From the IMG/VR virus record IMGVR_UViG_3300038400_000028, positions 1 through 54,299 of that record: DNA of 54,299 nt; one strand, given 5' to 3'. Position numbers and translations under genes: made by a program. The DNA comes from a virus (taxonomy: Duplodnaviria; Caudoviricetes). The notes beneath the pieces are model-generated. The model did not search any database, was not told the origin of the DNA, and was given only the letters and a program-made list of their open reading frames with translations. Of this stretch, positions 128 to 41,834 are shown piece by piece (position 1 is the stretch's first letter; each line of letters starts with the position of its first letter).

Positions 128-1222
128 GGTGCCGTTGCCCGTCGCAATGATCGATCCGCTCCGGTCGTCGTCGAGCGCCAGGATCGCGATATAGTCAATG
201 TCGCATGTCCCACTGCCCGCTGATGCCTTGCCGGAGATGCGCAGGTTGGATGGTGCAAAGTTAGAGGTCGTAACCCCCAAAAACATGATGCGCGGGGTGA
301 GACTGGAGCCATCAACTGTGAGGAGTGGCGTCGTTTGCGATTCGAGTGAGCACTGGAGTTGGAACGTCGTCGCGGCTGTGTTCGGGCGCACGGCTATCCA
401 GACGCCGACGCGGCGCGAGGTCGAGTCGAAGCCCGAGAGTGTAGTATCGATGAGTGGCAACAATGTCGTATCGGCCGGCGCCCAGCGTGCCACGTTCCCG
501 CCGCGCGCCTTGGCCGCCGCGTCGGCGGTGGATGTGACTGTCGCGCCAAGAAAGCCGCTTTCGGCCTCGTAGAGCTGCAGCCGGCTCGTCGCGCTCGCAT
601 ACAGGATCGTCGCGGCCGTATTCGAGAGTAGTCCGGCCGACCACGCCATCTGTATCTTGGTCGGTGAGCTCGTGGGAATGCTGGTCGTAAGCGTCGCACT
701 CAGCACGGTCGGATTGGCCGATGTGCTGCTCGTGGCACTCTCGGTCGTCGGGTCGAGCAAGAGCCCGCGCCGCAGGAAAGCGACGTTGACCGCCTCGATC
801 ATGTACATGCCCACATCGCGGTTGAAGCTGACGGGAAGGCTCGCCGCGCTGTTCGTTTCATCGCCTGGCGCTCTGCCTAGCACCAGACAGTTGTAGACCC
901 GCGCCGCGCCAGTCGGCGCCCATTGCAGGATGACGGGGCTGACATTCTGGCCCAGCCGATAGAAACGCTCGGCCTGGTCGAGCAAAAAAACAAGGTTGTA
1001 GAGGCTGGTCAGTACCTCGCTCTCCGTCTCGCCCATTACATGCGCCTGGAAGGACTCGACCTCATCCATGTAGGGGCCGCTGCCGCCGAGCGTGGACTTG
1101 CGCAGCCGCGCGATCTTTGGCGCCCAGCTGTCGCGCGCCAGCATATACTTGCGGTTGCCCGCCGAGTGCCAGATGAGGTTACAAGTGGTCGTGCCATCGG
1201 TTAGTTGCAGAATCATTGGCAT
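1..1222 (-). CDS. Distal tail (Dit-like)/minor tail protein, 5' part; continues across the junction to 54060 (about 444 aa)
   Basis: Missed by the ORF track. ATG at 1222 just after the TMP stop (MPMILQLTDGTTTCNL...), open to position 1 and in frame with 54060-54290; function inferred from position. Confidence 0.75.
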   Translation of the reverse strand, partial: MPMILQLTDGTTTCNLIWHSAGNRKYMLARDSWAPKIARLRKSTLGGSGPYMDEVESFQAHVMGETESEVLTSLYNLVFLLDQAERFYRLGQNVSPVILQWAPTGAARVYNCLVLGRAPGDETNSAASLPVSFNRDVGMYMIEAVNVAFLRRGLLLDPTTESATSSTSANPTVLSATLTTSIPTSSPTKIQMAWSAGLLSNTAATILYASATSRLQLYEAESGFLGATVTSTADAAAKARGGNVARWAPADTTLLPLIDTTLSGFDSTSRRVGVWIAVRPNTAATTFQLQCSLESQTTPLLTVDGSSLTPRIMFLGVTTSNFAPSNLRISGKASAGSGTCDIDYIAILALDDDRSGSIIATGNGTSPLVIDPRPLTGASPQATLNAGNLAASYLGDGMIHTNGQTIA

Positions 1223-1225
1223 CGT

Positions 1226-4200
1226 CTATCGCCTCGTTCGCTTAAATACATCAGCCCTTACCCCCGCCTCGTCGAGCGCCTTCTTGGCGCCGCGATAGCC
1301 GGCATCCTCGATCGCCTGCGCGTTCGTCGCGCCACGGGCATCAACCGAAATGCTGACCGTCGTGCCCGCCATCGCGAAATTCCCGGGCGAGCCGGCCAGG
1401 AGCGACGATGGCGCGGTCAGCCCCTGCCCACCTTGCCCAGGTGGTGGCTGCTGGGCGTTATTGATCTGCACCAGGAGATCATAGAGTTGCATCCAGATCG
1501 GGTTTTGGCCTGCGTCCGGCACGGCGTTGAGCACCGCCTGGAGCTGGTCTGCCAGTGCGCTGAGGCTATTATTATTGGTTATCTGCGAGCGTTCCCCAAA
1601 TGCCGCTTGCTCGGCCTGCTGCGCTTTCTGGATATCTGCGATCTGCTGGCTGATGCTATTGCGCTCGGTGTCCGTCTGCGCGGCCGCTAGGCCCTGCTGG
1701 AGCTTCGCCAGTTCAAAGATCTGGCTAGAGCGCATCTTGTAGAACTTCGCGGCTTGCTCGGGGTCATTCATCGCGGCGGCTACTTGCTCGGCCTCAGCCA
1801 GTTGCTGACGAAGAAGATCGCGGTGTGCCGCCGCTGTGACGGTCAATATGCCCCCGTCTGTCGTTTTCATCACGGCCGCGCCAATATCTTCGAGCGCCTT
1901 GGTGTTGCGTGCTTTTTGCCGATCAATACTCGCGGTCGCGTCGAACGCATCAGCGAGCGCTGAATGCACCCGATCGGGTAGCTCCTCCATAATGCTTGCC
2001 AGCGAGTCGACTAGGTCCTCAGCCTCCTTCTTGGCGTCCTCCGTCATGTCAGACATCGAGATGATCAGCTGTGTTGAGATCATCTGGATGCCTTCCAGCA
2101 GATCGGGCAGCATCCCCTCCAGGCCACCAAGCAGGCCGAGCATACTCATCTCACCGATGCCGGCAAACACCTGGGACGGCGAATGGATATCGAGTGCATC
2201 CGCCATCGTCCCGAGCATTTGATCGGCAGCACCTTGCATCGCGTCGATCGCACCCTGAAGGTGATCCTCGACCCCCTGGATCAGCCCCTCCATGATGTTC
2301 GTGCCGAGATCGGTCGCATCGTCCGGCGCGCTGCTCTCGCGCAACACCTCGCCGAACCTATCACCGGCGTCGCGCATCACATCGACGCCGCCGGTCGCTA
2401 CATCGGATAGGATGTTGTAGAAGGCATTGGCCGTGCTCGAAACGCCATCGATAATACCTTCGACGATCGGCACGCCGACCTCGTCGGCGAAGACCGATGA
2501 GGGAGAACTGATCCCGAGCGCATCCTTGGCCGACTGGAGCGCACCTGCGGCGAGGTTGCGCATGTAGCTGATGATCTGATCGCCGCCCGCTTTCAGTCCG
2601 TTCAGCAGGCCATTGATGATGTCGTTGCCGATCCCCGCCGATTTGCCGATCAGGCCATTCCAGATGCCAAGGATGAGATCGATCGTCGTATCGAAGGACG
2701 CCTTGATCAGCTGTAGCCCACCAGTGATGACCCCCAGGATATCGGTCACGAACCGTGCCGACATATCCTGGATCGTCTGCCAAGCACCCGACCAGTCACC
2801 GTTAATCGCCTGAAGCGCGGCAGTCAGGACGCCGCGAATCAGCGTCAGCGCGGCGTCGATTACGCTGCTGATGATCTGCCAGGCGCCACTGAAGGCGGCC
2901 TGTATCTCGGCGCCGTGGTCGTTGATAAACTGCGCGAGGAATTGGAGTGCGGGGACAACCGTAGCCTGAATCAACTGCATCGCCACCTGGATGATGTCAT
3001 TGATCTGGGTGTATATCTGGCCGGTAGTAGCCAGGATCTCATCACCGTGCGCCTGCCAAAAGGCGCTGATTTGCGCGAGAGCAGCGTTGATGACCTCGGC
3101 CAGCGGCTCGATAAGCGAGAGCACCGTATCATGGACGCTCTGCCAGGTCGTCTGCGCCTGACCGACCATCTCGGCGCCGTTCGCCTCAAAGTAGGCGATG
3201 ATGTCGCCCAGCACCTGGCTGACGAGCGCCTCGATCTGCGGCAAGGTTTCCTGAGCAACGCCATAGAGCAGGGCAAACGCAGGGCTGACCTCAGACAGAA
3301 CATTCAGAAAGCCTTCGATGGGGTTCGCGGCATCGGTGAAGGTCGCCGACAGCTCCCCGGCCAGGCCGGTAATCGCATCGCGCAGATCGAAGAGCGTCCC
3401 GATAATCGGGTCATCTTCCTGAAGACCAAAGATCCCGCCAGTGAAATCGCGGTTGAAGAAGATGTCAAAGAGGCCCTGCGCAGCGCTGGCAACGTCCTGG
3501 AATGTACCGACAAGTGGACTCAGATCCAGGCCAGTCATCTCGCGGATGTCGTCGAGTAGGACGCCCGTCCCACCGCCCTCGCTGAACGCATCATCGAACA
3601 ACCCGCCCAGCGTGACGACCGCATCGCCCAGCGTGTCGAAGATCGGCGAAACGCCATCCAGCCTGTAGAGCGCATTCGCTAACCCACCGATAGCCCCGCC
3701 ACCATTGGCCGCGCCCGTCTCAAAGGCTTGCACCAACTCGCCAAACCCTGCCGCGGCGCTCTCGACGATCGGCACGATCGTGTCGTTGAGGAAGCCGGCC
3801 AGGTCAGAAAGCAGCGGCAGCACGGCCGCGCCCATCGTCTCGGCCGCCTCGCCGAGTCGGTCATGGAACTGCGCCCAGCCGCCGTCTGCCTTTGCGGCTG
3901 CTTCGGCCTGCCCGCCAAATTCTTTGTTGAGCTCGTCGAGTACGAGCTTCTGGTATTCGGCGATGTGGCCGGTTTCAAACAGGCGCTTGCCCAGTTTCAG
4001 CTGCTCGTCGCTGAAACTGACGCCCTGGCGCTGGGCCGCCGACATCGCATCGGCGCTGTTGAGGATCTTGCCGACCATGATCGACATGTCTTCGGGCGTC
4101 TTCTTGAGCGCCTGGGCCATATCGACCGTGAGCACGGTCGCGAAGTCGAGCATCTCACCTTTGATATTCCCAAAGGTGAGCAGCATATTGGTTGCGGCCT

Positions 4201-4564
4201 GAACCTGGTCGTCACCGAAGAGGGATTTACCGGAAGCGGCTGAGAGAGAGGCAGCGAGGCTTTCGACGTGCTCGGCCGACACACCAGCCGCATTGCCCAT
4301 TGAGGTGATGGTCTGCTCGGTCTGGGCCATCACCAGCTGGTGTGCCCGCGCGTCGTCGATACCGCCCTTGAGCACGGCGCCGAACGCCACGACACCGGCA
4401 GCAGCGGCGGCCAGTCCGATCTTGAGCGCCCCGCTGATGATGTTGCCGATATGGGAGAAGCCGGATTCGGCACGCGCCTCGGCGTCGCTGATACCCTGGT
4501 CCAGGCCCTTCAGCGACACCTCGGTGCCGAGTACGGCGTTGCCTAGTGAGTCTTCGGCGGCCAT
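1226..4564 (-). CDS. Tape measure protein
   Basis: 1112 aa, Ala/Gly-rich helical, periodic W/F repeats, two ALxIxSPSxVF motifs, downstream of tail chaperones. Confidence 0.92.
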   Translation of the reverse strand: MAAEDSLGNAVLGTEVSLKGLDQGISDAEARAESGFSHIGNIISGALKIGLAAAAAGVVAFGAVLKGGIDDARAHQLVMAQTEQTITSMGNAAGVSAEHVESLAASLSAASGKSLFGDDQVQAATNMLLTFGNIKGEMLDFATVLTVDMAQALKKTPEDMSIMVGKILNSADAMSAAQRQGVSFSDEQLKLGKRLFETGHIAEYQKLVLDELNKEFGGQAEAAAKADGGWAQFHDRLGEAAETMGAAVLPLLSDLAGFLNDTIVPIVESAAAGFGELVQAFETGAANGGGAIGGLANALYRLDGVSPIFDTLGDAVVTLGGLFDDAFSEGGGTGVLLDDIREMTGLDLSPLVGTFQDVASAAQGLFDIFFNRDFTGGIFGLQEDDPIIGTLFDLRDAITGLAGELSATFTDAANPIEGFLNVLSEVSPAFALLYGVAQETLPQIEALVSQVLGDIIAYFEANGAEMVGQAQTTWQSVHDTVLSLIEPLAEVINAALAQISAFWQAHGDEILATTGQIYTQINDIIQVAMQLIQATVVPALQFLAQFINDHGAEIQAAFSGAWQIISSVIDAALTLIRGVLTAALQAINGDWSGAWQTIQDMSARFVTDILGVITGGLQLIKASFDTTIDLILGIWNGLIGKSAGIGNDIINGLLNGLKAGGDQIISYMRNLAAGALQSAKDALGISSPSSVFADEVGVPIVEGIIDGVSSTANAFYNILSDVATGGVDVMRDAGDRFGEVLRESSAPDDATDLGTNIMEGLIQGVEDHLQGAIDAMQGAADQMLGTMADALDIHSPSQVFAGIGEMSMLGLLGGLEGMLPDLLEGIQMISTQLIISMSDMTEDAKKEAEDLVDSLASIMEELPDRVHSALADAFDATASIDRQKARNTKALEDIGAAVMKTTDGGILTVTAAAHRDLLRQQLAEAEQVAAAMNDPEQAAKFYKMRSSQIFELAKLQQGLAAAQTDTERNSISQQIADIQKAQQAEQAAFGERSQITNNNSLSALADQLQAVLNAVPDAGQNPIWMQLYDLLVQINNAQQPPPGQGGQGLTAPSSLLAGSPGNFAMAGTTVSISVDARGATNAQAIEDAGYRGAKKALDEAGVRADVFKRTRR

Positions 4565-4662
4565 GCATGCGCTCGCGTGTCATATAACGCGGGCGCGAGG
4601 TGCGGCGGCGTTCGTCGGTGCGCGTGGGGCAGTACGCGCGACGCGCGCCGGAGGGGATTAGA

Positions 4663-4770
4663 TTAATCGCTGGTCGTGTTGCCGAGCTTGTAGCGTTTGA
4701 TGGCCTCGGCGATAGCCATCAGCGATCGATAGATTACCTGCCAGAGCAAGCGCTCAGGATCCTGTGTCAT
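4663..4770 (-). CDS. 35-aa small protein MTQDPERLLWQVIYRSLMAIAEAIKRYKLGNTTSD
   Basis: ATGA overlap with upstream stop; amphipathic helix; below ORF-track cutoff. Confidence 0.5.
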   Translation of the reverse strand: MTQDPERLLWQVIYRSLMAIAEAIKRYKLGNTTSD

Positions 4771-5144
4771 GCGCTTTCGACCTTTTCAGCATCCTCAGAT
4801 GTAGTGACCCGAAAGCCCCGTGCGCGAAACCACTCTGCCGCCGCCTGCGGGTCCTGCCGGATGAACTCAACGGGCTGTGGTTTGGGTGCTGGCTGCACCT
4901 GGATCTGTAACTGGCGCATCATCCGCCGATAGGCTTGCCGTTCCAAATGCGGCGCGATTGCCGCCTGCACCGCGTCGATCTGCTCGACAGCGCGCAGGGT
5001 TGGAAGCTGCTCAATCAGGATCGTCAAGTAGCAGACCGGCATCCGTAAATAGTCTAGCGGCGACCCTCCGTAGTAGTAGCAGAGGCGGGCGAGCGTTTGC
5101 CGCGCGGCGTTTTCGCCTGTGGCGCCGGCGGCTCCGCTTCCCCC
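4767..5144 (-). CDS. Tail assembly chaperone C-terminal extension (gpGT-like, -1 frame)
   Basis: The -1 frame is open from the slippery site: ...TLARLCYYYGGSPLDYLRMPVCYL... Confidence 0.8.
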   Translation of the reverse strand, partial: GGSGAAGATGENAARQTLARLCYYYGGSPLDYLRMPVCYLTILIEQLPTLRAVEQIDAVQAAIAPHLERQAYRRMMRQLQIQVQPAPKPQPVEFIRQDPQAAAEWFRARGFRVTTSEDAEKVESA

Positions 5145-5530
5145 ACGGGGGTTGGCTCCGCTGATACGTCGGCGGCTTTCTGTGCTGCGCGCCAGCGCGT
5201 AATGATCTTTTGCTTGCCCCAGGTCGGGATTTTTTCCAAGCGCTCACGTGGGAAATCCGGCATTAGGATCAGCAGCATCTCGTCGATGATGCGCAGCATC
5301 TGCTGCATTGCTTTTTGGACCCTGCTAGGGTCACGCTGGGCTACGCCTTTTGATTGCATCAGCGCCTGCGCCTGATCGACCTCTCGCTGCAACTGGTTGT
5401 ATGCTCCAAAGTCCTCGCTACTGAACATCTGCATCGTGCGCATGTCGTAGCGCTGACCATCGCCGCCGAACGTGTCATCGACGTAGACGATCGGCTCGGG
5501 GATTAGGTCGGCAAGACTGAAGGAAGGCAT
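5054..5530 (-). CDS. Tail assembly chaperone (gpG-like)
   Basis: Between major tail and TMP genes; slippery site near its 3' end. Confidence 0.8.
   Translation of the reverse strand: MPSFSLADLIPEPIVYVDDTFGGDGQRYDMRTMQMFSSEDFGAYNQLQREVDQAQALMQSKGVAQRDPSRVQKAMQQMLRIIDEMLLILMPDFPRERLEKIPTWGKQKIITRWRAAQKAADVSAEPTPVGEAEPPAPQAKTPRGKRSPASATTTEGRR
5138..5144 (-). other. Programmed -1 frameshift site G GGG GAA
   Basis: GGGGGAA in the 0 frame, followed by a GC-rich hairpin (GGCG-AAAA-CGCC). Confidence 0.75.
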
Positions 5531-5564
5531 AAGCGTTGCTCCTTATTGCATAGGGCGCGATCGA

Positions 5565-6152
5565 CTAGCCCGTCTGTGCGGTCAGCCAACCCAGCTCGTC
5601 GCCGGCAGCCTGGGTATCATCCTCGAACGGCGTGACAACCAGTTCCAGCCCTGCGCGGCCATCCTTCGTGAAGGCTGGCGCGGGCTCGCCGTCAAAGACC
5701 GCCATCGGCAGATAGTACTGTATCGGATAGCTACCGTAGGGTGATGCAATCTCCGATCGAAACAGCATGGTGTAAAGCTTCGGCATTCGCCCGCGCTTGA
5801 TTGGCATGCGCTTGACCGCTGGTGGCCCGGCGTCCGATGTGACGTTGGCCGCGTCGTTCAGTACCCGCGCGTAGTTCTCCAGAGTCAGATCGACAATCAT
5901 GGTCGTGATGGTGGGGTCCTCTTCAGGTCGCACGGCCTTGACTACCCCCTGGTGATTATCGTCGTAGAACTTCGTCAACGCGCCGGCGTGGTTGACGGTT
6001 TGCCCACCGTCGGTATCGCCCACGAACACGAACCCGCTCGCGATTGGATCAGCACTGGCCGCTGGCTCGGCCGTGCTCGCCGTGCCATGAATATAAAGTT
6101 TGAGTGTCATGCCGGCGAGCTGCTCGAAGGGCGCCAGATTTGCATCGGCCAT
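5565..6152 (-). CDS. Major tail tube protein
   Basis: 195 aa, acidic and beta-rich with a VGDTDGG motif; between terminator and chaperone genes. Confidence 0.8.
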   Translation of the reverse strand: MADANLAPFEQLAGMTLKLYIHGTASTAEPAASADPIASGFVFVGDTDGGQTVNHAGALTKFYDDNHQGVVKAVRPEEDPTITTMIVDLTLENYARVLNDAANVTSDAGPPAVKRMPIKRGRMPKLYTMLFRSEIASPYGSYPIQYYLPMAVFDGEPAPAFTKDGRAGLELVVTPFEDDTQAAGDELGWLTAQTG

Positions 6153-6164
6153 GCCGTTATCCTC

Positions 6165-6611
6165 CTATGGAACGAAGTTGCGATGGCAGCACGCTCGAAG
6201 CGAAACGCGCGCCAGGTCGATATTCAGATCGCCGTCTTTGAGGTGCTCAGGCGAGTCGTCCAGCACCAGCCAGTAGAGCAGGCCATTGCCGCGGTCGGTT
6301 GCAACGACGGTGCGCTCGCTCGCGTCGCAGATGACCGCCAGCGCGCCGTAGACGCGGTTTGCCTCTTCCTGGCTTGCGCCGTAGCAGCGTGCCTCTAGTC
6401 GGCTGCGCTGCTGCCTGCCGTACAAATCGACCGCGCCGCCAGGGGCGTAGCTGACAGTGAGCGCCTTGGATGGGAGCGGCCATGCCTCCTCATCGTCGGC
6501 GGCGTCCAGGCCGAACTTGTGCTTGCTCGCCACGCGGCCCTCGGTTTCGAGGTTCAGGTCAGCGTCGCTCACCAGCCGCGCAATGACGATCTCGAGCAGA
6601 TCGGCGATCAC
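6165..6611 (-). CDS. Tail terminator/completion protein
   Basis: GTGA overlap start; RLEARCYG..EA motif; position. Confidence 0.65.
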   Translation of the reverse strand: MIADLLEIVIARLVSDADLNLETEGRVASKHKFGLDAADDEEAWPLPSKALTVSYAPGGAVDLYGRQQRSRLEARCYGASQEEANRVYGALAVICDASERTVVATDRGNGLLYWLVLDDSPEHLKDGDLNIDLARVSLRACCHRNFVP

Positions 6612-6913
6612 AGCCTTGCCCCACAGATGATACAAAACTGCGCGCCAGTCGGCGGTGTATCACCACACTCACGACAACACAGTCGTTGAGTTGAGCCGGT
6701 CGCAGGGGTCTCATTGGATTGCACGCGCCTGTTGGGTGGGTCTCCAGCAGGTCGCACCCCCTGGTTTACCCCGACATGCGAGAACTGCCTGAGAATATTT
6801 GAGGGCGTAGCCTCATGCTGCGCGGGCGGCGCTACGTTCGGCCTCGGTGTTTGTGGGTTTGGATTGACTTTAGCCATAACGTCCCCTGGCGCTGGTCCGA
6901 CATAAATGCCCAT
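6608..6913 (-). CDS. Hypothetical protein with C-terminal zinc ribbon
   Basis: CRECG...FCIICG; translationally coupled on both sides. Confidence 0.6.
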   Translation of the reverse strand: MGIYVGPAPGDVMAKVNPNPQTPRPNVAPPAQHEATPSNILRQFSHVGVNQGVRPAGDPPNRRVQSNETPATGSTQRLCCRECGDTPPTGAQFCIICGARL

Positions 6914-7239
6914 TACTGGCAGTGCTTCCTCACGATATCGAGCGCTATCGGTTTCACGCGCCCAAGCCCCTCGCTGATGTAGCGATACAAGCGATGTATC
7001 CTCAGCGCGTATCTGACACCCCTGACCCCCACGCTGCCCCGAATACGATCGCCCTCTTCATGTGCCGCGTCGCCCGCAATCGCGCGCTGGAGCGTGCCCG
7101 AGCGCTTGCCGTGGCCAGGATAGAGCTCAGCTTTTGCTTCGGTCTCGATCCGCTGATCGATCTCCGTCAGCGCTTGCACGAGCTGGCGCGCTTTCTTTGC
7201 TCGCAGCGCCGCGCCCTTCCATGCGATCTTCGCTGACAT
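6913..7239 (-). CDS. HK97 gp10-like neck protein
   Basis: SGTLQRAI and VRYALRIH motifs; GGAGG RBS. Confidence 0.7.
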   Translation of the reverse strand: MSAKIAWKGAALRAKKARQLVQALTEIDQRIETEAKAELYPGHGKRSGTLQRAIAGDAAHEEGDRIRGSVGVRGVRYALRIHRLYRYISEGLGRVKPIALDIVRKHCQ

Positions 7240-7375
7240 CGGCCCCCTCCCCGGGTAGCGCAGGCTGCCCGTCCACACCTTCCAGGCTCTCCAATGAAAC
7301 AAAGATGCGCCCGCGCAGGCTGATCAAGTGACCAGCCTGGGCCAGTTGCCCCATCTTCTTTGGTGTAATCTTCAT
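7127..7375 (-). CDS. Small hypothetical protein
   Basis: ATGA coupling to upstream gene; 3' end overlaps the next gene. Confidence 0.4.
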   Translation of the reverse strand: MKITPKKMGQLAQAGHLISLRGRIFVSLESLEGVDGQPALPGEGADVSEDRMEGRGAASKESAPARASADGDRSADRDRSKS

Positions 7376-7734
7376 CGGGTGGTCCCTTTCTCCAGCCTGG
7401 CGCTCTGGTGCTTGGCCGCGCGCCCGCGCCGCCGTAACACGTGCTCGATCGTATATGGCCCCGCGTCGGTTGTGCCGTCTTCCAGCACGATGTTGACAAT
7501 ACGATCCTTCGGCTTCACGTCGCGGCCGACTCCAAATAGCAGCAGGTAGGTCGTGATCGTCGGCCGCTCGGCGAGCGCACTATCCGCGACACGCTGCTCT
7601 TTCTCCACGAAGCGGCAGCGCATCCCCTGCTCCCATACCTGCCAGCTTTTCTGCTCAGCCTTGAGTCCGTCGCGTCCGATGCTGGTGAAGCGCTCCACGT
7701 CGCAGCGGTGGATGAAGTGCGCATCTACGCCCAT
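7372..7734 (-). CDS. Head closure/stopper protein
   Basis: 120 aa, DVKPKDRI motif, position in head-tail module. Confidence 0.7.
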   Translation of the reverse strand: MGVDAHFIHRCDVERFTSIGRDGLKAEQKSWQVWEQGMRCRFVEKEQRVADSALAERPTITTYLLLFGVGRDVKPKDRIVNIVLEDGTTDAGPYTIEHVLRRRGRAAKHQSARLEKGTTR

Positions 7735-20729: not shown

Positions 20730-20919
20730 GAAGTGCCCAAACGACCTTATGAAAAGCCTCTGGCGTCAGCCCCTGCGCAAAGTTCGTGTAGTAGTGATAC
20801 TGCTGGTCGTTCATCAGAACGACATAGCGGCCATCCTGCCCGTAGGCCGAGGCATGGAAAGCGCCCCAACAGTGTCTGAGATAGGCCACAATCAGCCAGT
20901 GAATGAGTTTACGTATCAT
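20707..20919 (-). CDS. Hypothetical protein MIRKLIHWLIVAYLRHCWG...
   Basis: GAGGG RBS; resembles 14393-14527. Confidence 0.5.
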   Translation of the reverse strand: MIRKLIHWLIVAYLRHCWGAFHASAYGQDGRYVVLMNDQQYHYYTNFAQGLTPEAFHKVVWALREADGHR

Positions 20920-21073
20920 ATGCGCCCTCTGGCTCATCGGCCTCATCGTCCAGAAACAGCCCCGTGTGCCCTGGGTCCAGCTCATCGCCGCGCTTCGACC
21001 GGAATAACGCAAAGGTCAGCACGCCCAACATGAAGCAGCCGACCCCAACACAGAAGAGCAGAAGTCCGATCAT
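20909..21073 (-). CDS. Small single-TM protein
   Basis: MIGLLLFCVGVGCFMLGVLTFALFRSKR plus acidic tail; ATGA coupling. Confidence 0.5.
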   Translation of the reverse strand: MIGLLLFCVGVGCFMLGVLTFALFRSKRGDELDPGHTGLFLDDEADEPEGAYDT

Positions 21074-21159
21074 TGCCTACCCCCAGTCTCCCAGTAAATC
21101 GCCAGCAGGATCAGCACGGCCAATACAACAGCAGCCAGCACGGCAACCGAGAGATTCAC
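21070..21159 (-). CDS. 29-aa TM peptide
   Basis: MNLSVAVLAAVVLAVLILLAIYWETGGRQ; GTGA overlap with the holin stop. Confidence 0.45.
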   Translation of the reverse strand: MNLSVAVLAAVVLAVLILLAIYWETGGRQ

Positions 21160-21470
21160 TGCACCAACCGCTCCCGCTCGACTCGATCCACCGGCGCTGC
21201 TGGCGTGTGTACGACATTCAGCCGGCTGATCAGATCGTTAAAAACGTTCGATCCCCTGCTGATGAGCAGGCCCGTCAGCACGCTCCCGACGAACGGCACG
21301 CTGGCCGGATAGCCGAGGAGTGCCAGCAAATCCGCGCCGTAGGCCAGGCAGAGCGCGACGCCCAGTGCGGCGGCCACATAGGGCTTGTAGGCCGATGGGA
21401 TCGGTGTGCCGAAATACTCAATGAGCGCCTCGACGACGATGACCAAGACAACGATAAGTGCAAACACCAT
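21156..21470 (-). CDS. Holin
   Basis: Three hydrophobic segments; LTGLLISRGSNVFNDL motif typical of phage holins. Confidence 0.75.
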   Translation of the reverse strand: MVFALIVVLVIVVEALIEYFGTPIPSAYKPYVAAALGVALCLAYGADLLALLGYPASVPFVGSVLTGLLISRGSNVFNDLISRLNVVHTPAAPVDRVERERLVQ

Positions 21471-21479
21471 AGCTACCCC

Positions 21480-21839
21480 TTATGGCAAAAGCCCAAACAG
21501 CTTCCCGAGTGCCTGTAATGCGGGGACGCTCGACAATGCTCCAATGACAACAATTGCCGTCCGCATCCCCTTCCATTGGTTCAGTCGCGCTTCATTCTGA
21601 TCGATCAACTGGTCGATCTTGTCTTCCAGCTTCGCAATCCGCTCGATGATCCCCACCTGGCGCGTTCGCACATCACCGTACATCAGCGCCTCTAGCTGGG
21701 CCACAGCTTTGATGAGCGGCGCGATCTGGGTGGCGGCCTCAGCAGACACTTGCTCGCGCACGGTGCGCATAGCGGTCGAAAGCTCCTGGACCGCCGAGAG
21801 CACCTGCTTGTAATACTGCTGCTCGTCACTCGCGCTCAT
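21480..21839 (-). CDS. Coiled-coil protein with C-terminal membrane anchor (lysis-associated)
   Basis: LMYGD...GIIERIAKLE coil followed by a hydrophobic tail. Confidence 0.6.
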   Translation of the reverse strand: MSASDEQQYYKQVLSAVQELSTAMRTVREQVSAEAATQIAPLIKAVAQLEALMYGDVRTRQVGIIERIAKLEDKIDQLIDQNEARLNQWKGMRTAIVVIGALSSVPALQALGKLFGLLP

Positions 21840-22317
21840 TGATCTTGATACGCTCTTGCAATAATGTAATGACCTGATCTTGGAGCGCGATCAAACGACC
21901 CTGCGTTGCGGCGTTCTCTTGCTGGTGCCGCGCTGACACGTCACGAACGATCGCAATCGTCAGCCCACCGTCGAGCGGGCCAAGCGCGATCTCGACGTTG
22001 ATGACCGTCCCGTCGGCACGGAGCGCCGGAAGCGTCCGGCCGAGCGCCATCGGACGCTGGCGTGGGGCCGCGTTATAGAGCGCGCGGTGGCCGCGATGCC
22101 GCGGACGGATAGACTCCGGGATAAGCAAATCAACATTCTTTTGTAGCAACGCCTCGATGCTGTAGCCAAACAGCAGTGCGGCCTGGCTGTTGGCGGCAAC
22201 GATCGCGCCAGCGGGATCAACCACGAGCGCGGCATCAGGGACGACATGTATCCATTCCGCCACAATGCTATCCCCCGGTTGGGCGATCCCCACGCCCGTA
22301 ATCTCTGCTACAATCAC
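21826..22317 (-). CDS. Stand-alone PAS (S-box) domain protein, FixL-like
   Basis: PDAALVVD..GAIVAANSQAALLFGYS..LL...VDLLIP..R..H...GR.LPALRADG...VEIAL...AIVRDVS. Confidence 0.9.
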   Translation of the reverse strand: MIVAEITGVGIAQPGDSIVAEWIHVVPDAALVVDPAGAIVAANSQAALLFGYSIEALLQKNVDLLIPESIRPRHRGHRALYNAAPRQRPMALGRTLPALRADGTVINVEIALGPLDGGLTIAIVRDVSARHQQENAATQGRLIALQDQVITLLQERIKINERE

Positions 22318-22396
22318 TGATAGCTCCTCGACGGTCTAGCCCGCCGTGGGGTCAGCCGTGCGGTGGGGATACCAGCCCTACCGTGCGGCGCTCCAC

Positions 22397-22708
22397 CTAG
22401 TCCCCGACTGCGCACGAGCGCGCTTGCTCGTCCAATATCCGATCGATCTGCTCTAAATGGCGCTGGTGCAAAGTCAATTGTTCGCGCATCCGCACAGCCA
22501 TTTCGCGATCGACCTCCTGCGCGCTCGCCAAAAACATGACCGCCTGCACTGCCAAACGCTGCGCGATATCGGCGAATTGTGCCAGGAGGTCATCCGCCGC
22601 CGCCTGAATAGCGACCTGATCGCCCGCTGTGACCGCTGCGCTGAACCGATCGACGGCCGCGATCTGCTGCTCTCTGATAGAGCGCCGTCGGCGATAGACG
22701 CGAGTCAT
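22397..22708 (-). CDS. Helical hypothetical protein
   Basis: ATGA-coupled to the amidase stop. Confidence 0.55.
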   Translation of the reverse strand: MTRVYRRRRSIREQQIAAVDRFSAAVTAGDQVAIQAAADDLLAQFADIAQRLAVQAVMFLASAQEVDREMAVRMREQLTLHQRHLEQIDRILDEQARSCAVGD

Positions 22709-23418
22709 AGATGCTCCAGCTGCTCGAGCAGCGCGAACCCAAGGCCATTTTTCATGTGGCCAATCCCGCCCCACTCCGGCTTAACCTCGTCGATCTCAAC
22801 GACGGCGCCAGAGGGCAGGAAAGCCGTGCCGTTCAGGGCGATGGGGAAGTTCAGCCCAGGCCCTTGATGCACCGCGGCGCCGCGCACGCGGTAGGTGCCT
22901 GGCGCATTGACCATCAGGCTCTGCTTGAAAGTGGCCCAATCGAAATTCGCGGGGTCAGTCTTCCGACCGCGCGGGATGGCAATATCGAGGTGACGCACGA
23001 CATGAGAAAGCGGGATGTGATACTCCGTCATCTTTGCCTGCACCAGGGCACGGAAAGCGGCAATCTGGACAGCGGGGTAGGGATCGGGCGGATGGGTCGT
23101 CTTATTCGGCATCTCCATCCCGGTGAGATTCTCCAGCTCGATCCCGAGCGATCCCGCCTGGATCTCCTCACTGTCCAGATCGTTCCAGAACGACGCGCCG
23201 GCGTGCCAAGCCGCGCGGGCGTCGGCGACGAGCTGGGCGATGTGGCCATCCTTACGGACGAGGTAATGCGAGGAAACACGGGAATTGGGGTTACAGAGCC
23301 AGTTTAGGGAAGAGAGGTATGGGCCGACCGTCGCATGGCCGACGATCAGCGTGATGGGCTGCCCGTTGCGCGAGCTGTGATTAGGGGAACTGTGCGATCG
23401 GTCGATGTCGAGGGTCAT
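22705..23418 (-). CDS. Endolysin: N-acetylmuramoyl-L-alanine amidase (Amidase_2/AmpD-like) with SH3b-like tail
   Basis: IVGHAT, VSSHYLV, AWHAG, SLGIELE, VVRH..RKTDP. Confidence 0.92.
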   Translation of the reverse strand: MTLDIDRSHSSPNHSSRNGQPITLIVGHATVGPYLSSLNWLCNPNSRVSSHYLVRKDGHIAQLVADARAAWHAGASFWNDLDSEEIQAGSLGIELENLTGMEMPNKTTHPPDPYPAVQIAAFRALVQAKMTEYHIPLSHVVRHLDIAIPRGRKTDPANFDWATFKQSLMVNAPGTYRVRGAAVHQGPGLNFPIALNGTAFLPSGAVVEIDEVKPEWGGIGHMKNGLGFALLEQLEHL

Positions 23419-36573: not shown

Positions 36574-37112
36574 CACACCCCGCCCTCATCCTCGGCCTCG
36601 ACTATTCCAGCGCGGCAATCGGCTGGTGTGTGCGCAACAGCCACGTCGTCGATCGCGGCGTTATCCGGCTCGACAAGAAAGCCGACATCAGCGAGCGTTG
36701 CTGGTCAGCGCAGCGCGCGGTCGAGGATCTGCTGATGCGCCACGCGGTCGATGCCGTGGCGCTAGAAAGCCCGGTCGCACGGTTCGCGAAGGCGGTCATC
36801 CCCCAGGCACGCATCAGCGGCGTGGTGCTCGCCACGCTGGCCCAGCATAGTCGCGCCTGGTGCGAAGTCACCCCCACAGCCGCCAAGCTGGCGCTCGCCG
36901 AGGATGGCGCGGCGACCAAGCGCGAGATGCTCGAAGCAGCGGCTGCGCACTTCGGGTATGACTCGGCGACGCTGGTGTATCGCTCGCGGCGCGACGAGTG
37001 GGCCGCGTGGCTCGACGGCTGTGGGGCGTGTGAATACAGCGAGCACGAGGCCGATGCGCTGGGGGTGGCGTTGGCGGCCGCGGGCAAGGTGGAGGTGTGC
37101 AATGTTGTCTGA
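36570..37112 (+). CDS. RuvC-like Holliday junction resolvase
   Basis: ILGLD, VALESP, AKLA...ATKREM, HEADAL. Confidence 0.85.
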   Translation: MTHPALILGLDYSSAAIGWCVRNSHVVDRGVIRLDKKADISERCWSAQRAVEDLLMRHAVDAVALESPVARFAKAVIPQARISGVVLATLAQHSRAWCEVTPTAAKLALAEDGAATKREMLEAAAAHFGYDSATLVYRSRRDEWAAWLDGCGACEYSEHEADALGVALAAAGKVEVCNVV

Positions 37113-37959
37113 TGTTGATGTGCTCGATCTCGGGAGCGATCTGCGGCTGCGTTATCGCTATTTCATGCGTGAGTCGCTCCAGCATCCTGCCAAGCTGCAT
37201 CTGGGGCTGCTGGCCTGGCTGATCGAGCGCTACACGCGACCGGGTGAGACCATCGCCGACCCGATGGGGGGCATCGGCTCGACTGCCTACGCGGCCCTTC
37301 TGCAGCGCAACGTCATCTTGCGCGAGATCGAGCCGAAGTGGCTCAATCTGGCGTGCAAGAATGCCGCTTGTATCACCCGCGCGGCCGGGCTGTTCGCCGG
37401 CACCATCAACCTGGGCCAGGCCGATGCCCGTGAGCCGTGGGGATATATGGCCGATCATATCCTCTTCAGCCCGCCCTACGGGTGCGATGCACAGCACAAA
37501 GCCGGCACACGCACGCGCAACCTGGCCGATCGGCTGAGTAAGTTCGACTCTCGCCAGGTGCGCTATTCGCAGCGCTGGTCATCCCTGGCCAAGCGCGCCA
37601 CAACGCAGCAAGGCGCCGCCGCCCTCTTTAACTTCGCCTACGGCGACCACGTGGCCCAGCTCGGGCATCTGCGTGGCGAGCGCTACTGGCAGGCGATGGA
37701 ACAGGTCTACACCCAGGCCCGCTCCGCGCTCCATCCCGGCGGCCTGTTGATCCTCATCATCAAAGATCACATCAGGGACGGGATGCGCGTTCAGACCGCC
37801 GAGCAGACTGTGATGCTGTGTGAGCGGCTCGGCTTCACCCTGGCTGCCAGGCACGCGCGACGGGTGTGTCCACTCAGCCTCTGGCAGCGGCGGCGCAAGG
37901 AGCGCGGCGAGCCGGTTGTGGAAGAGGAAGATGTGCTAGTGTTTCGAGGTGAAGCATGA
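37102..37959 (+). CDS. Amino (N4C/N6A) DNA methyltransferase
   Basis: HPAK, ADPMGGIGST, FSPPY. Confidence 0.85.
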   Translation: MLSDVDVLDLGSDLRLRYRYFMRESLQHPAKLHLGLLAWLIERYTRPGETIADPMGGIGSTAYAALLQRNVILREIEPKWLNLACKNAACITRAAGLFAGTINLGQADAREPWGYMADHILFSPPYGCDAQHKAGTRTRNLADRLSKFDSRQVRYSQRWSSLAKRATTQQGAAALFNFAYGDHVAQLGHLRGERYWQAMEQVYTQARSALHPGGLLILIIKDHIRDGMRVQTAEQTVMLCERLGFTLAARHARRVCPLSLWQRRRKERGEPVVEEEDVLVFRGEA

Positions 37960-38822
37960 CCGATTCACGCCTGACGGCCTATCTGAAAACAGCGCGCGAG
38001 CGACAGCATGCCTTTTATGCGCGCCAGGCGTTCCGCTTCGCCGCCCAGGCCGGCGACACGGCGGCGATGGAAGAGGCGATGGCACTCGGCGCGGTCGACT
38101 ACCAGCCGGAGCCAAACGTGTACAGCAGATATATACCCGGCGAGGAAAAGATGCTTGACCAGATCATCACCGGCGACGCGCGCGAGCTCGCGAAAGATAT
38201 CCCCGATTCGTCGGTGGATATGATTTTCACTGACCCGGTGTACGAAAATGTGGAGGATTACGCATGGCTGGCTGAGACTGCTGCGCGTGTCCTGAAACCG
38301 GAGAAAGCCTGCTTGGTTTGGTGTAGCAGCGTGAAACAGTACGAAGTACAGCCGCTCATGCGAAAGCACCTTACCTTTGTCCTACAGCTGACGTACACGA
38401 AGGTCGCGAAAGCCTACAAGGTGTGGGGCTATAAAACCTTCCTCTGGACCACGCCATGCCTGTGGTTTCAGAAGGACGGTGATCACTTCCACGCGGACCA
38501 CGAGTGGCTGATCGATAGTGTGCTGGACTATGGCAATGCGATCACCAGCACGGCGACGCCGCCCGCAAAAACCCATAAGTGGCACAAGAACCCGGAGGCA
38601 TATAGCTACTGGCTACAGCGCTTTACGAGACCCGGGGATGTGGTGTGGGACCCGTTCACCGGCAGCGGGTCGCTGCCACTCGTTTGCTTAGAGCACGGCC
38701 GGCACTTCATCGCCTCCGAGATCGTGCCGGAGATCGCTGATCAGGCCCGCGCCCGCATCGCGCAGGTGCAGAGCCAGACGCGGATGCCGCTGATCGAACA
38801 ATACGCAATGGAGCTGACATGA
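37956..38822 (+). CDS. Beta-class amino DNA methyltransferase (alternative start 38151)
   Basis: SVDMIFTDPVY...HKWHKNP...VWDPFTGSGS. Confidence 0.88.
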   Translation: MTDSRLTAYLKTARERQHAFYARQAFRFAAQAGDTAAMEEAMALGAVDYQPEPNVYSRYIPGEEKMLDQIITGDARELAKDIPDSSVDMIFTDPVYENVEDYAWLAETAARVLKPEKACLVWCSSVKQYEVQPLMRKHLTFVLQLTYTKVAKAYKVWGYKTFLWTTPCLWFQKDGDHFHADHEWLIDSVLDYGNAITSTATPPAKTHKWHKNPEAYSYWLQRFTRPGDVVWDPFTGSGSLPLVCLEHGRHFIASEIVPEIADQARARIAQVQSQTRMPLIEQYAMELT

Positions 38823-38898
38823 TCGCCACAACGTCCATCATCACATCCCTGCTAGGCGCCCATGCCCCGGTGGCGATCGGCGTTTCGGGGATGGTGCT

Positions 38899-40149
38899 GT
38901 GAAAACATTTCGCACCCTCTTCTCTGGCGGCGAGTTGTTTGGTGCGGGCGCTCGCGCGGCTGGCTGGCAGCACCTCGACGGCTATGAGATCGATGAGCGT
39001 ATCGCCGCCGTGGCGCGCCTGAACGGTTTCGACGTGCGAACGATTGATGTATGCCAGGTCGATTACGACAGTCTGCCGCCAGCCGACCACTTGCACGCCT
39101 CGCCCAGCTGCAAGCACGCCAGCCAGGCCAATACACAGGCTGGTGAGACCGACGAGGACCGGACGGCGGCCGACGCCGTGTGCCGGGCTGTTCGAGCGCA
39201 CCAGGGCGCGACGGTGTCGCTCGAAAACGTTTGGGGCTACCGCACCTTCGAGTCGTTTCGGCGCATCCTGGCTACGTTGAAGGCGTGTGGTTTCGTCGTC
39301 GACTTTCGCCACATCAACGCAGCTGATTACGGCGTCCCGCAGACCCGCAAGCGTCTGATCCTGCGCGCTGTCCGAGGCTCGGGCCGCGTGCCGCCGCTGC
39401 ACCCGACGCACCGCAAAGGCGGCGATATGTTCCATGCGCCCTGGATCGGGTGGTACGCGGCAATTGCCGACCTCATCCCGACGCTGCCAGCGACGGAGCT
39501 GGCCCCCTGGCAGCTGGCGCGGCTGCCCGCGGAACTGCGCGAGACGATGTTGTTGAGCGGCGCAATGGCGAACGGCGCCGATGTTGTTACTAGATCGGTC
39601 GATGAACCCGCTGTGACGGTTGTGGCGGCAGAAATAACTAAAATGCCCGTGCGCGCGTACCTCATCGGTTCGGGCGGCTATAACGGGCTCGTCACGCAGC
39701 GGCTGCGTGACGAGCCCTGCTTCACCGTGACATCCACGCATGAGTCCCAGGTGATACGTGCGCTCCTTGTCCAAAGCAAGAACACAAGCCAGGAGTGGGG
39801 TGATGGCTATTGGGTAGACGAGCAGCCGGCGCCGACCGTCGTAAGCGATCACAAACCCAGCCACATGCCGCGCGCCTACCTGCTCGATGGCGACAACGCG
39901 CGTGCCGATACGGGCGAGCAGCTCGCCCGTATCGGCACAGAGCCAGCCATGACGCTCCGCGGCTCGCGCACGACCGCCCAGCGCGCTTACGTCGGTCGCT
40001 GGGTCAGGCTTACGGTGCGGGCCCTCGGCCGTTTCCAGACCGTGCCGGATAGCTACGTCAGCCTGACCGCCGAGATCAATGGGAACGCTGTTCCTCCGCT
40101 TCTTGCTCAACGGATAATGGAATCTTTGTTACCCGCGTACGAACGTTAG
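38899..40149 (+). CDS. C5 cytosine DNA methyltransferase
   Basis: LFSGG, HASPSC, LENV, YGVPQTRKR, RFQTVPD, GNAVPP. Confidence 0.9.
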   Translation: MKTFRTLFSGGELFGAGARAAGWQHLDGYEIDERIAAVARLNGFDVRTIDVCQVDYDSLPPADHLHASPSCKHASQANTQAGETDEDRTAADAVCRAVRAHQGATVSLENVWGYRTFESFRRILATLKACGFVVDFRHINAADYGVPQTRKRLILRAVRGSGRVPPLHPTHRKGGDMFHAPWIGWYAAIADLIPTLPATELAPWQLARLPAELRETMLLSGAMANGADVVTRSVDEPAVTVVAAEITKMPVRAYLIGSGGYNGLVTQRLRDEPCFTVTSTHESQVIRALLVQSKNTSQEWGDGYWVDEQPAPTVVSDHKPSHMPRAYLLDGDNARADTGEQLARIGTEPAMTLRGSRTTAQRAYVGRWVRLTVRALGRFQTVPDSYVSLTAEINGNAVPPLLAQRIMESLLPAYER

Positions 40150-40831: not shown

Positions 40832-41130
40832 CCCAACCCGACACCGACTCCATCCGCCGCATGCTCGACGACGGCACGCCGATCCCGCCGTGGATCGTGC
40901 GCGGGCTGTGCGACAGAGTAGAGCAGTGCGAAAACGTGATGTCACAGGTAGCTCGCCTGACCCAGGAGGTGCAAACGGATCTGCGTCAGTTTGAAACCGC
41001 GATACGGCCAGAGCTAGGCGCGCTTTTGTGCCTGCTCGCTGCCGCACGCGCCTGGGACGATGCGGTGGAGCGCTGTGACGGCATCGTGGCGGCTGAGGAG
41101 CGACTGCGAGAGGCACTGAGGGGGCTATGA
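40828..41130 (+). CDS. Hypothetical protein
   Basis: ATGA coupling. Confidence 0.6.
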   Translation: MTQPDTDSIRRMLDDGTPIPPWIVRGLCDRVEQCENVMSQVARLTQEVQTDLRQFETAIRPELGALLCLLAAARAWDDAVERCDGIVAAEERLREALRGL

Positions 41131-41834
41131 CGATTGCACTCCGACTCGCCGACCGCGCCGGCGCCGAATGGGCACAGCGCCAGGTCGCGGCGCATCACTA
41201 CCTACATGCGCCGGTTGACCCGCGTAGCCGGCCGCTCGTCTACATCGTACAACTCATCGCACCGAAAGTTGATCGACCGATCGGCTGCCTAATTTTCGGC
41301 AGGCCGGAGGCCACACGCTGCTACGATGGCGCGCTGACCTACGGTTCATCGGCTGATATTCAGGACGGTCGTGCTCGGTTTGACCGCTGGGAGGTGCTGA
41401 ACCTGGCGCGCGTCTGGTTTGATCCTTGTGTGCAGCAGCCGGGCTATCTCTATCACAATCCCGCCTATCTACCGGGCTTCTATGATCGGCACTACACTTT
41501 TCGCTCCACACTGGCCAGCGCGGTCATTGCCCAAGCGCTCTCTCGTGTGGGCCACGACTATTTGACCGCGCATCCGCCGGTCGATTGTGCCTATCCGTAC
41601 CAGATCAAGGCCGTGCTGAGTTACTGCGATCGGCGGCAACATAAAGGCACCATTTACCGTGCTGCTGGCTTTGAGTTGGCGCGCACGAACGAGCGCCAGA
41701 TCGAAACGTGGTACACGATCGCCGTGGCGCCGCTGTCGCCCGAGCAGGATGCCGATATCCGCCACCTATCCGAGACTTCGCAACGTTCGCAGCGCATTCG
41801 CGGCCGGCGAACGCAATTGGAGCTAGGGCTATGA
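41127..41834 (+). CDS. Mom-like DNA modification protein
   Basis: HHYLH, IFGRP, NLARVW, VLSYCD..HKGTIYRAAGF. Confidence 0.75.
   Translation: MTIALRLADRAGAEWAQRQVAAHHYLHAPVDPRSRPLVYIVQLIAPKVDRPIGCLIFGRPEATRCYDGALTYGSSADIQDGRARFDRWEVLNLARVWFDPCVQQPGYLYHNPAYLPGFYDRHYTFRSTLASAVIAQALSRVGHDYLTAHPPVDCAYPYQIKAVLSYCDRRQHKGTIYRAAGFELARTNERQIETWYTIAVAPLSPEQDADIRHLSETSQRSQRIRGRRTQLELGL

Follow-up and report, generated by a model that had tools for sequence, protein, structure and literature searches.

Among the PAS sensors that bind heme b, those closest to the protein treated here are FixL of Bradyrhizobium japonicum and Rhizobium meliloti (1drm, 1dp6, 1d06, 8js5), FG214 of Fimbriimonas ginsengisoli (10jx) and DosP/EcDOS (1v9y, 1s66, 9cdr). 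In FixL the PAS is joined to the HisKA and HATPase domains of a kinase, FG214 is a one-component regulator with a helix-turn-helix DNA-binding domain, and DosP carries cyclic-di-GMP enzyme domains. Holin timing in phages is usually seen as an internal clock responsive only to membrane energisation, the known exceptions being the periplasmic sensing of superinfection in T-even phages and in ICP1. The subject of this study is a gene located at 21826-22317 on the minus strand of IMG/VR record IMGVR_UViG_3300038400_000028, a viral record that is 54,299 bp long, bears direct repeats at its termini and is rated 100% complete; it was analysed as a whole and is called the window in the following. Unlike FixL, the product of the gene stops after a single PAS domain and a helix; the gene itself is part of the lysis region of a phage and lies among or beside the genes for endolysin and holin, as expected for antiholins and lysis-timing regulators.

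The open reading frame (ORF) has 163 codons, with a GTG start and the sequence GAGGAG 7 nucleotides (nt) upstream; its stop lies 14 nt inside the next ORF, which codes for a coiled-coil, membrane-anchored protein of 119 amino acids (aa), so that the overlap reported in a preliminary description of this DNA is a real one. The product matches Pfam PAS_9 with an E-value of 3.9e-9 and 37.2 bits (cut-off 27), and PAS, PAS_4 and PAS_8 likewise exceed their cut-offs; no second Pfam domain was found, the HisKA and HATPase_c domains expected of FixL-type kinases being missing from the Pfam matches of the 163 residues, and no PHROG matched. An AlphaFold2 (AF2) model based on 11 sequences (mean predicted local distance difference test score 83.8) has a canonical PAS core at about residues 23-127, an F-alpha helix at residues 68-83, a disordered segment at residues 1-15 and a single C-terminal helix at residues 128-162; with its length of about 35 residues, this helix takes the place where, in related sensors, a signalling coiled coil connects the PAS to the kinase domain. 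ORF coordinates, Pfam and the AF2 model therefore bear out the complete PAS domain with a helical tail and no output domain that had been described from the DNA alone, and 21826-22317 is a real gene for a cytoplasmic protein made of one PAS domain and a helix.

The family to which the domain belongs is well defined. A search of PDB sequences gave 14 distinct sequences at E<=0.01, namely seven FixL, six DosP/EcDOS and 10jx, and the titles of the entries (for 10jx, 'heme binding PAS domain... FG214') identify all of them as heme-b PAS sensors. The best match is FixL (E 4e-14, 31-32% identity; Foldseek 3e-10), whereas the DosP/EcDOS sequences were matched at 1e-7 to 3e-6 and also by fold. Foldseek compared the AF2 model with FixL, 10jx and DosP at a probability of 1.00, every listed rank above 26 being one of FixL, 10jx or DosP/EcDOS and the first other PAS appearing at rank 26. 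By its sequence, the domain is thus a new member of the FixL/DosP/FG214 heme-PAS cluster.

The same kinship extends to the pocket. The motif RPRHRGH, in which the preliminary description had noticed a histidine near the position of the FixL heme ligand, covers residues 71-77; its first histidine, His74, is located in helix 68-83 of the model and stands in the same alignment column as the one histidine present in the F-alpha segment of FixL and as the proximal His156 of FG214. With FG214 the identity is 37% in Foldseek, the pattern H-x2-H...P-x2-R-x-M is shared and the alignment with 10jx is ungapped across the pocket, placing His74, His77 and Met90 on His156, His159 and Met172, so that, of the four heme-pocket residues probed in FG214, the phage protein matches three. 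According to the accessible part of the FG214 preprint (bioRxiv 10.64898/2026.03.15.711900), in the ferric state His156 is the proximal and His175 the distal ligand, His156 and Met172 coordinate the iron in dithionite-soaked crystals, and the H156I variant loses its heme. With FixL the phage protein also shares Arg94, which aligns with the column altered in the R220A entry 1y28, and a helix behind the PAS core, like that of the dimeric construct 8js5; it differs in having Leu in the column of the Arg changed in entry 2cmn. In an alignment of 11 phage PAS proteins, composed of the window protein, its two close relatives P0002 and P0003 and the proteins of eight viral loci described below, His74, His77, Pro85, Arg88 and Met90 are invariant (11/11). 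Since the nearest solved relatives are all heme PAS domains, His74 is aligned with their ligand and the pocket residues are invariant, binding of heme through His74 is a well-founded prediction; five-coordinate iron, as in FixL, and six-coordinate His/Met iron are both compatible with the sequence.

A link between this sensor and a membrane protein is indicated by the downstream gene and by one of the relatives. The 119-aa protein has its only hydrophobic segment at the C-terminus, around residues 94-116, and its three homologues P0154-P0156 are 46-58% identical to it, the last ~40 residues being almost invariant. Close relatives of the PAS protein among 5.8 billion proteins of similar length are only two, P0002 (160 aa, 68% identical) and P0003 (177 aa, 70% identical over the PAS); in P0003 the coiled-coil tail is replaced by a hydrophobic C-terminal stretch, and the PAS is thus joined directly to a membrane anchor. 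This natural fusion supports the membrane link that had been proposed. A frameshift fusion of the PAS protein with the 119-aa partner, prompted by P0003, was dropped, no slippery sequence being seen in the overlap. Assignment of the partner to XhlA (PF10779) was also rejected, as Pfam gave no match at E<=0.1 and the XhlA cluster of the ESM Atlas scored 0.89, under the 0.9 line; otherwise the ESM Atlas returned only unnamed viral clusters. Weak PHROG matches of the family include phrog_937 'hemolysin' (1.6e-3), in one of four members. A complex prediction for the PAS protein and residues 1-95 of the partner scored 0.00 (mark 0.32) and was used neither way.

As a survey of synteny revealed, other viral contigs likewise have PAS genes of this kind next to genes for lysis. 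Scanning of IMG/VR with the PAS alignments gave eight loci, whose PAS proteins are 34-42% identical to that of the window; in six of them (L002, L003, L004, L005, L007 and L009) a PAS gene for 134-146 aa is overlapped or abutted by a gene for 67-86 aa with a coiled coil and a C-terminal transmembrane (TM) segment. A hydrolase gene follows this anchor gene, directly in L002 (Amidase_3), L003 (Phage_lysozyme), L005 (Peptidase_M15_4), L007 (Peptidase_M15_3) and L009 (Peptidase_M15_4 at 24.3 bits, just under the cut-off of 25), and two genes further on in L004 (Amidase_2); five Pfam hydrolase families are thereby represented, and in several of the six loci holin-like and lipoprotein genes lie downstream. 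In the remaining two, L006 and L008, membrane proteins adjoin the PAS gene and no hydrolase was recognised. The PAS gene of L008, which lies in a head-gene region, also adjoins a gene for a 495-aa protein with 2'-5' RNA ligase/LigT matches and a weaker match to the anti-CBASS protein Acb1 (25.2 bits, under the cut-off of 27).

The occupants of this slot were further surveyed by scanning viral contigs with the second anchor family, that of the six loci; 106 viral stretches were confirmed and 80 of them kept, giving 64 non-redundant loci, and the 126 ORFs directly upstream or downstream of the anchor gene were run through Pfam, the automatic choice of ORFs missing at least the M15_4 gene of L018, which is the same locus as L005. 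The upstream ORF codes for a PAS protein in 20 of the 64 loci and for a Cupin_2 protein in two (L031 and L064). What recurs is therefore a sensor-type domain encoded immediately before a small gene for a tail-anchored coiled coil, often, although not in every case, with an endolysin beside it. By eye, the N-terminal helix of the Cupin_2 proteins resembles that of the L004 and L021 PAS proteins, which suggests a shared docking helix with swapped sensor domains. Also by eye, the upstream PAS proteins of L037, L039, L040 and L058, of ~175 aa, are of another subtype with an N-terminal hydrophobic stretch of their own, and in L065 a ribosomal protein S21 homologue (Pfam 3.4e-11) is encoded shortly upstream of the tail-anchored gene.

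The reading that we prefer, tentatively and at somewhat less than an even chance, is that of a captured host-kinase sensor that tunes the timing of lysis. The PAS protein would bind heme b through His74, with Met90 as a possible sixth ligand and Arg94 as a possible contact to bound O2; it would dimerise like its relatives, and whenever the heme changed its ligand or redox state, the signal would run into the C-terminal helix. This helix, or the surface of the PAS domain, may then act on the cytoplasmic coiled coil of the 119-aa protein, which together with the 104-aa holin-like protein would set the time of membrane breach. Lysis would be advanced or delayed by the O2 or redox state of the host cell.

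Several observations weigh against this reading, the first of them concerning the pocket. Gly93 stands in the column of the distal His175 of FG214, Arg94 is found only in the three members of the window clade (3/11), and the histidine is kept by about 60% of the FixL/DosP cluster and lacking in about 40%, according to the available text on cluster 3 (PMC10468136), so that membership of the cluster is by itself no proof of heme binding. Furthermore, no homology could be detected between the second anchor family and the 119-aa partner (nothing with BLASTP; hhalign 2.3%, or 9.2% with larger alignments), and what recurs is therefore an architecture and not one conserved pair. The six viral loci with PAS, anchor and hydrolase form only two related groups in the tree described below, which together with the window makes three lineages and not seven independent observations. 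Moreover, among the 64 loci of the second anchor family a Terminase_6N protein is encoded upstream of the anchor gene in 14 and a T4-type portal downstream of it in 16; since the anchor gene also occurs between terminase and portal with no PAS gene nearby, it is not a dedicated lysis-cassette gene. The loci where it stands alone between the Terminase_6N large terminase and the T4-type portal (14/64) are L023, L025, L027, L044, L067, L069, L073, L076, L077, L081, L083, L086, L089 and L090, at position ~4000 in most.

The last of these observations concerns the loci that share the partner of the window protein. Homologues of the 119-aa protein are encoded in five metagenome loci, L011-L015. Two of them, L012 and L015, hold Amidase_2, a 210-aa helical protein without family, the anchor protein, small TM proteins and a terminase; in L011 the C-terminus of an amidase is followed by 92-aa and 68-aa proteins and the anchor protein, in L013 the ORF ahead of the anchor gene does not code for a PAS, and L014 begins only 94 nt before that gene. 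The PAS is absent from all five, four of which extend at least 900 nt upstream and have a helical non-PAS protein there instead. Indeed, a profile of the 11 PAS proteins, searched against L011-L015, the window and L010 (a cellular locus used as positive control), found the window and L010 and none of L011-L015 at E<=0.01, and of the other window proteins the amidase alone matches these loci (33% identity). Hence the frame of the cassette, composed of amidase, helical protein, anchor, small TM proteins and terminase, exists without PAS, and in the window the PAS gene is an optional addition to it. Lack of a conserved position in related phages, which the preliminary description had named among the findings that would speak against its proposal, is therefore true of the loci with partner homologues (PAS in 0/5), whereas PAS and lysis genes do recur together in other viral contigs.

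These findings bear on two other explanations. It is conceivable, though unlikely, that the gene is a moron, a passenger whose function has nothing to do with lysis, placed at a permissive junction of the late operon: it is missing from every one of the five loci sharing the anchor protein, 79 nt of non-coding DNA lie ahead of it where the neighbouring genes overlap or abut one another, and PAS domains are very common, an exhaustive HMMER search giving 46,721 matching representative proteins at E<=1e-3. These are mostly multi-PAS proteins with 24-49% identity, and beyond P0002 the search gave no further stand-alone relatives. A passenger, on the other hand, would hardly be expected to agree with the neighbouring genes in GC content, both overall and at third codon positions (GC3), to have its own ribosome-binding site and an overlap with the downstream gene, to keep its full length in two relatives at 68-70% identity, and to be placed by independent phage groups in the same kind of slot.

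The second explanation accepts a role of the PAS protein in the lysis module and denies that it is a heme sensor; with another ligand or none, it would be a cytoplasmic adaptor or an antiholin-like partner of membrane proteins, and we regard this too as having a low probability. PAS types without the His-Met motif fill the same slot, the full H-x2-H...P-x2-R-x-M pattern being present in only 8 of the 20 upstream PAS proteins, and in two loci the slot is taken by Cupin_2, so that it is the position that recurs rather than heme chemistry; the share of FixL/DosP cluster members lacking the histidine points the same way. Within the PAS lineage of the window, however, His74, His77 and Met90 do not vary, the pocket residues map to FG214 positions whose mutation, as far as the accessible preprint text goes, removed or changed heme binding, and 14 of 14 solved sequence relatives bind heme.

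As regards the origin of the PAS, no relative of the window PAS or of those of L003 and L006 was found among the deposited phage genomes of INPHARED, nor did viral contigs scanned with the single PAS protein, or metagenome contigs scanned with an alignment of three members, give any match. The scan of species genomes gave one locus, L010, in a metagenome-assembled genome (MAG) of Chloroflexota; it codes for a 419-aa PAS-HisKA-HATPase kinase that is 50% identical and is the closest cellular relative found. In L010 this kinase gene stands between hypF, hypC, hypD and hypE, which directly precede it, and the gene of an OmpR-type response regulator, and the kinase is possibly a heme-PAS regulator of hydrogenase genes. 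As a candidate host of the phage, Chloroflexota is named on the strength of this one PAS match at 50%.

A maximum-likelihood tree was built from 43 PAS domains, three from the window clade, 13 from other phages and 27 cellular, the last being L010 and 26 of the 150 listed HMMER proteins, picked for high identity, with the other 124 left out. The window clade (100/100) falls among cellular domains, and the other phage PAS proteins lie across a branch with 85/78 support, found in 80% of bootstrap trees. This only suggests that different phage lineages recruited PAS domains separately, because the cellular sequences had been chosen as the best matches to the window protein. Judging from these relationships, the gene was most likely captured from a host sensor kinase.

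Such an origin is also at the root of a third alternative, distinctly improbable in our opinion, according to which the protein is a decoy or dominant-negative subunit that would heterodimerise during infection with a PAS histidine kinase of the host and so shut off or freeze the output of that kinase, the location of the gene beside lysis genes being incidental. The closest cellular relative is indeed the sensor domain of such a kinase, near a response regulator and the hyp genes, the phage copy retains the PAS and the start of the linker helix with no HisKA domain, and the window clade groups with cellular PAS domains. A decoy, however, leaves unexplained the 14-nt overlap with the membrane-anchored gene, the P0003 fusion and the recurring pairs of PAS and anchor genes beside hydrolases in other phages. 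Furthermore, a sample of 401 Chloroflexota genomes gave no relative of the 119-aa anchor family, and the one MAG searched for the phage capsid protein, that of L010, gave none of the latter. A scan of viral contigs for the 119-aa anchor family also gave no match.

The window has the gene content of a tailed phage: on the minus strand, PHROG matches identify a tape-measure protein, major head protein, protease, portal, large and small terminase and an HNH endonuclease, and on the plus strand a primase/helicase, DNA methyltransferases and an integrase, and the phage is therefore a temperate one. GC content is 56-66% throughout, and the relatives of portal and endolysin are all distant (24-44% identity) and belong to phages of many hosts. 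The order of genes around the PAS gene on the minus strand is Amidase_2 endolysin, 103-aa ORF, gap, PAS gene and then the 119-aa, 104-aa and 54-aa proteins (Table 1). The ORF of the endolysin is listed from 23625, and the ATG at 23418 is its probable start according to the translation and the upstream bases. The placement of the PAS gene between endolysin and holin, as first described, holds in part: there are an amidase upstream and a protein with three TM segments downstream, whereas the 103-aa ORF intervenes and the holin has no family assignment. The 104-aa protein is indeed a putative holin by position, topology and a weak match to holin phrog_1129 (only 0.018), its better match, phrog_20258 (2.6e-10), being of unknown function and the ESM Atlas giving no named relatives, only unnamed viral clusters. 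No family was found in Pfam or PHROGs for the 54-aa protein, nor, at useful E-values, for the 103-aa protein, which has no match within L011-L015 either. The gap before the PAS gene holds a repeated CCGCACGG-like motif, which may be a hairpin or an insertion scar. Elsewhere in the window, a run of three DNA methyltransferase genes and, behind it, a gene matching a Mom-like DNA modification function lie shortly ahead of the integrase.

Table 1. Positions of the genes and other features discussed for the window and for the compared loci.
Sequence	Feature	Positions	Strand	Basis or remark
Window	Endolysin, N-acetylmuramoyl-L-alanine amidase	22705..23418	-	Pfam Amidase_2 1.1e-27 and PHROG amidase/endolysin families
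Window	103-aa helical protein	22397..22708	-	ATG overlaps endolysin stop (ATGA)
Window	Gap before PAS gene, 79 nt	22318-22396		Repeated motif
Window	Stand-alone PAS protein, FixL/DosP/FG214 heme-PAS type, 163 aa	21826..22317	-	Pfam, PDB sequence search, AF2, Foldseek
Window	119-aa coiled-coil protein, single C-terminal TM (tail-anchored)	21480..21839	-	Hydropathy, homologues
Window	104-aa membrane protein, putative holin	21156..21470	-	Three TM segments as read from hydropathy peaks
Window	54-aa protein, one N-terminal TM, acidic tail	20909..21073	-	Possible further lysis component
Window	DNA methyltransferase genes and gene with Mom-like match	36904-40149 and 41127-41834		Just before integrase
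L008	495-aa protein, 2'-5' RNA ligase/LigT	6113-7600		Adjoins PAS gene
L010	hypF, hypC, hypD, hypE, PAS kinase, response regulator	721-7708		Chloroflexota MAG
L031	Cupin_2 protein	1949-2350		Upstream of second anchor gene
L064	Cupin_2 protein	3496-3993		Upstream of second anchor gene
L065	Ribosomal protein S21 homologue	3542-3787		Viral contig

As a protein, a heme-type PAS without output domain, coupled to a membrane anchor in a phage lysis cassette, is without known counterpart. No description of PAS or other sensor domains in lysis cassettes was found in the literature, supplements being outside the scope of the search, and in the accessible portions of the sources on the known lysis regulators, namely T4 RI/RIII, ICP1, P1 LydB and LysF1a/b, no cofactor sensor domain is described. 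If lysis is indeed tuned in the way proposed, a cofactor-bearing cytoplasmic sensor would be a new input to the lysis cassette, and the phage could put off or speed up lysis depending on the oxygen or redox state, with effects on burst size and on survival in stratified or fluctuating habitats. The protein would also represent a natural heme-PAS module of very small size that signals through contact with another protein and not through an enzyme, which is of relevance for studies of how PAS domains signal and for the engineering of lysis switches under gas or redox control; consisting of a soluble 163-aa protein and a four-gene cassette, the system makes the idea directly testable.

A broader proposal, which we consider rather doubtful, is that unrelated phage lineages have repeatedly built a sensor-gated lysis clock, in which a cytoplasmic sensor domain (heme PAS, other PAS or cupin) would be combined with a tail-anchored coiled-coil protein acting on the holin, the latent period being set by oxygen, redox or metabolic state; this phage would then be the first heme-based gas/redox case, derived from a host two-component kinase.

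Among known lysis systems, the T4 holin T with its antiholins RI and RIII (PMC11413866, PMC8385771) offers the example of small accessory proteins, encoded among or close to lysis genes, that shift the firing of a holin upon a signal. As far as the available text of these papers goes, however, RI senses superinfection in the periplasm, and there is no PAS or cofactor domain and no sequence relation to the window protein. Two-part holin-like systems are present in phages of monoderm hosts, as described in the accessible parts of the reports on LysF1a/LysF1b of F1-cluster mycobacteriophages (bioRxiv 10.64898/2025.12.04.692442) and on XhlA/XhlB of PBSX; like the 119-aa and 104-aa proteins of the window, they combine a single-TM and a multi-TM holin-like protein beside an endolysin. 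Conversely, the TM segment of LysF1b is N-terminal (N-out, C-in) and not a C-terminal anchor as in the window protein, and neither pair is described there as having a sensor domain. With regard to the FixL-like architecture, the heme-PAS regulators named at the beginning remain the nearest in sequence, FG214 differing also in its distal His175, and short LOV/PAS proteins without effector (PpSB1-LOV, W619_1; 8a36, 7r4s, 5luv) are similar in build, with a PAS core and a C-terminal helix and Foldseek ranks 36-46; these, however, are bacterial flavin photoreceptors with 18-20% identity.

Finally, a PAS-containing protein that reportedly times the switch from lysogeny to lysis is VqmA of vibriophage VP882, whose PAS is said to be of a different type from that of the window. 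It acts as a transcription factor at prophage induction, whereas the window protein is a domain-less member of the lysis cassette. According to the available part of the source (PMC8284805), VqmA is a phage-encoded homologue of a bacterial quorum-sensing receptor of the same name.

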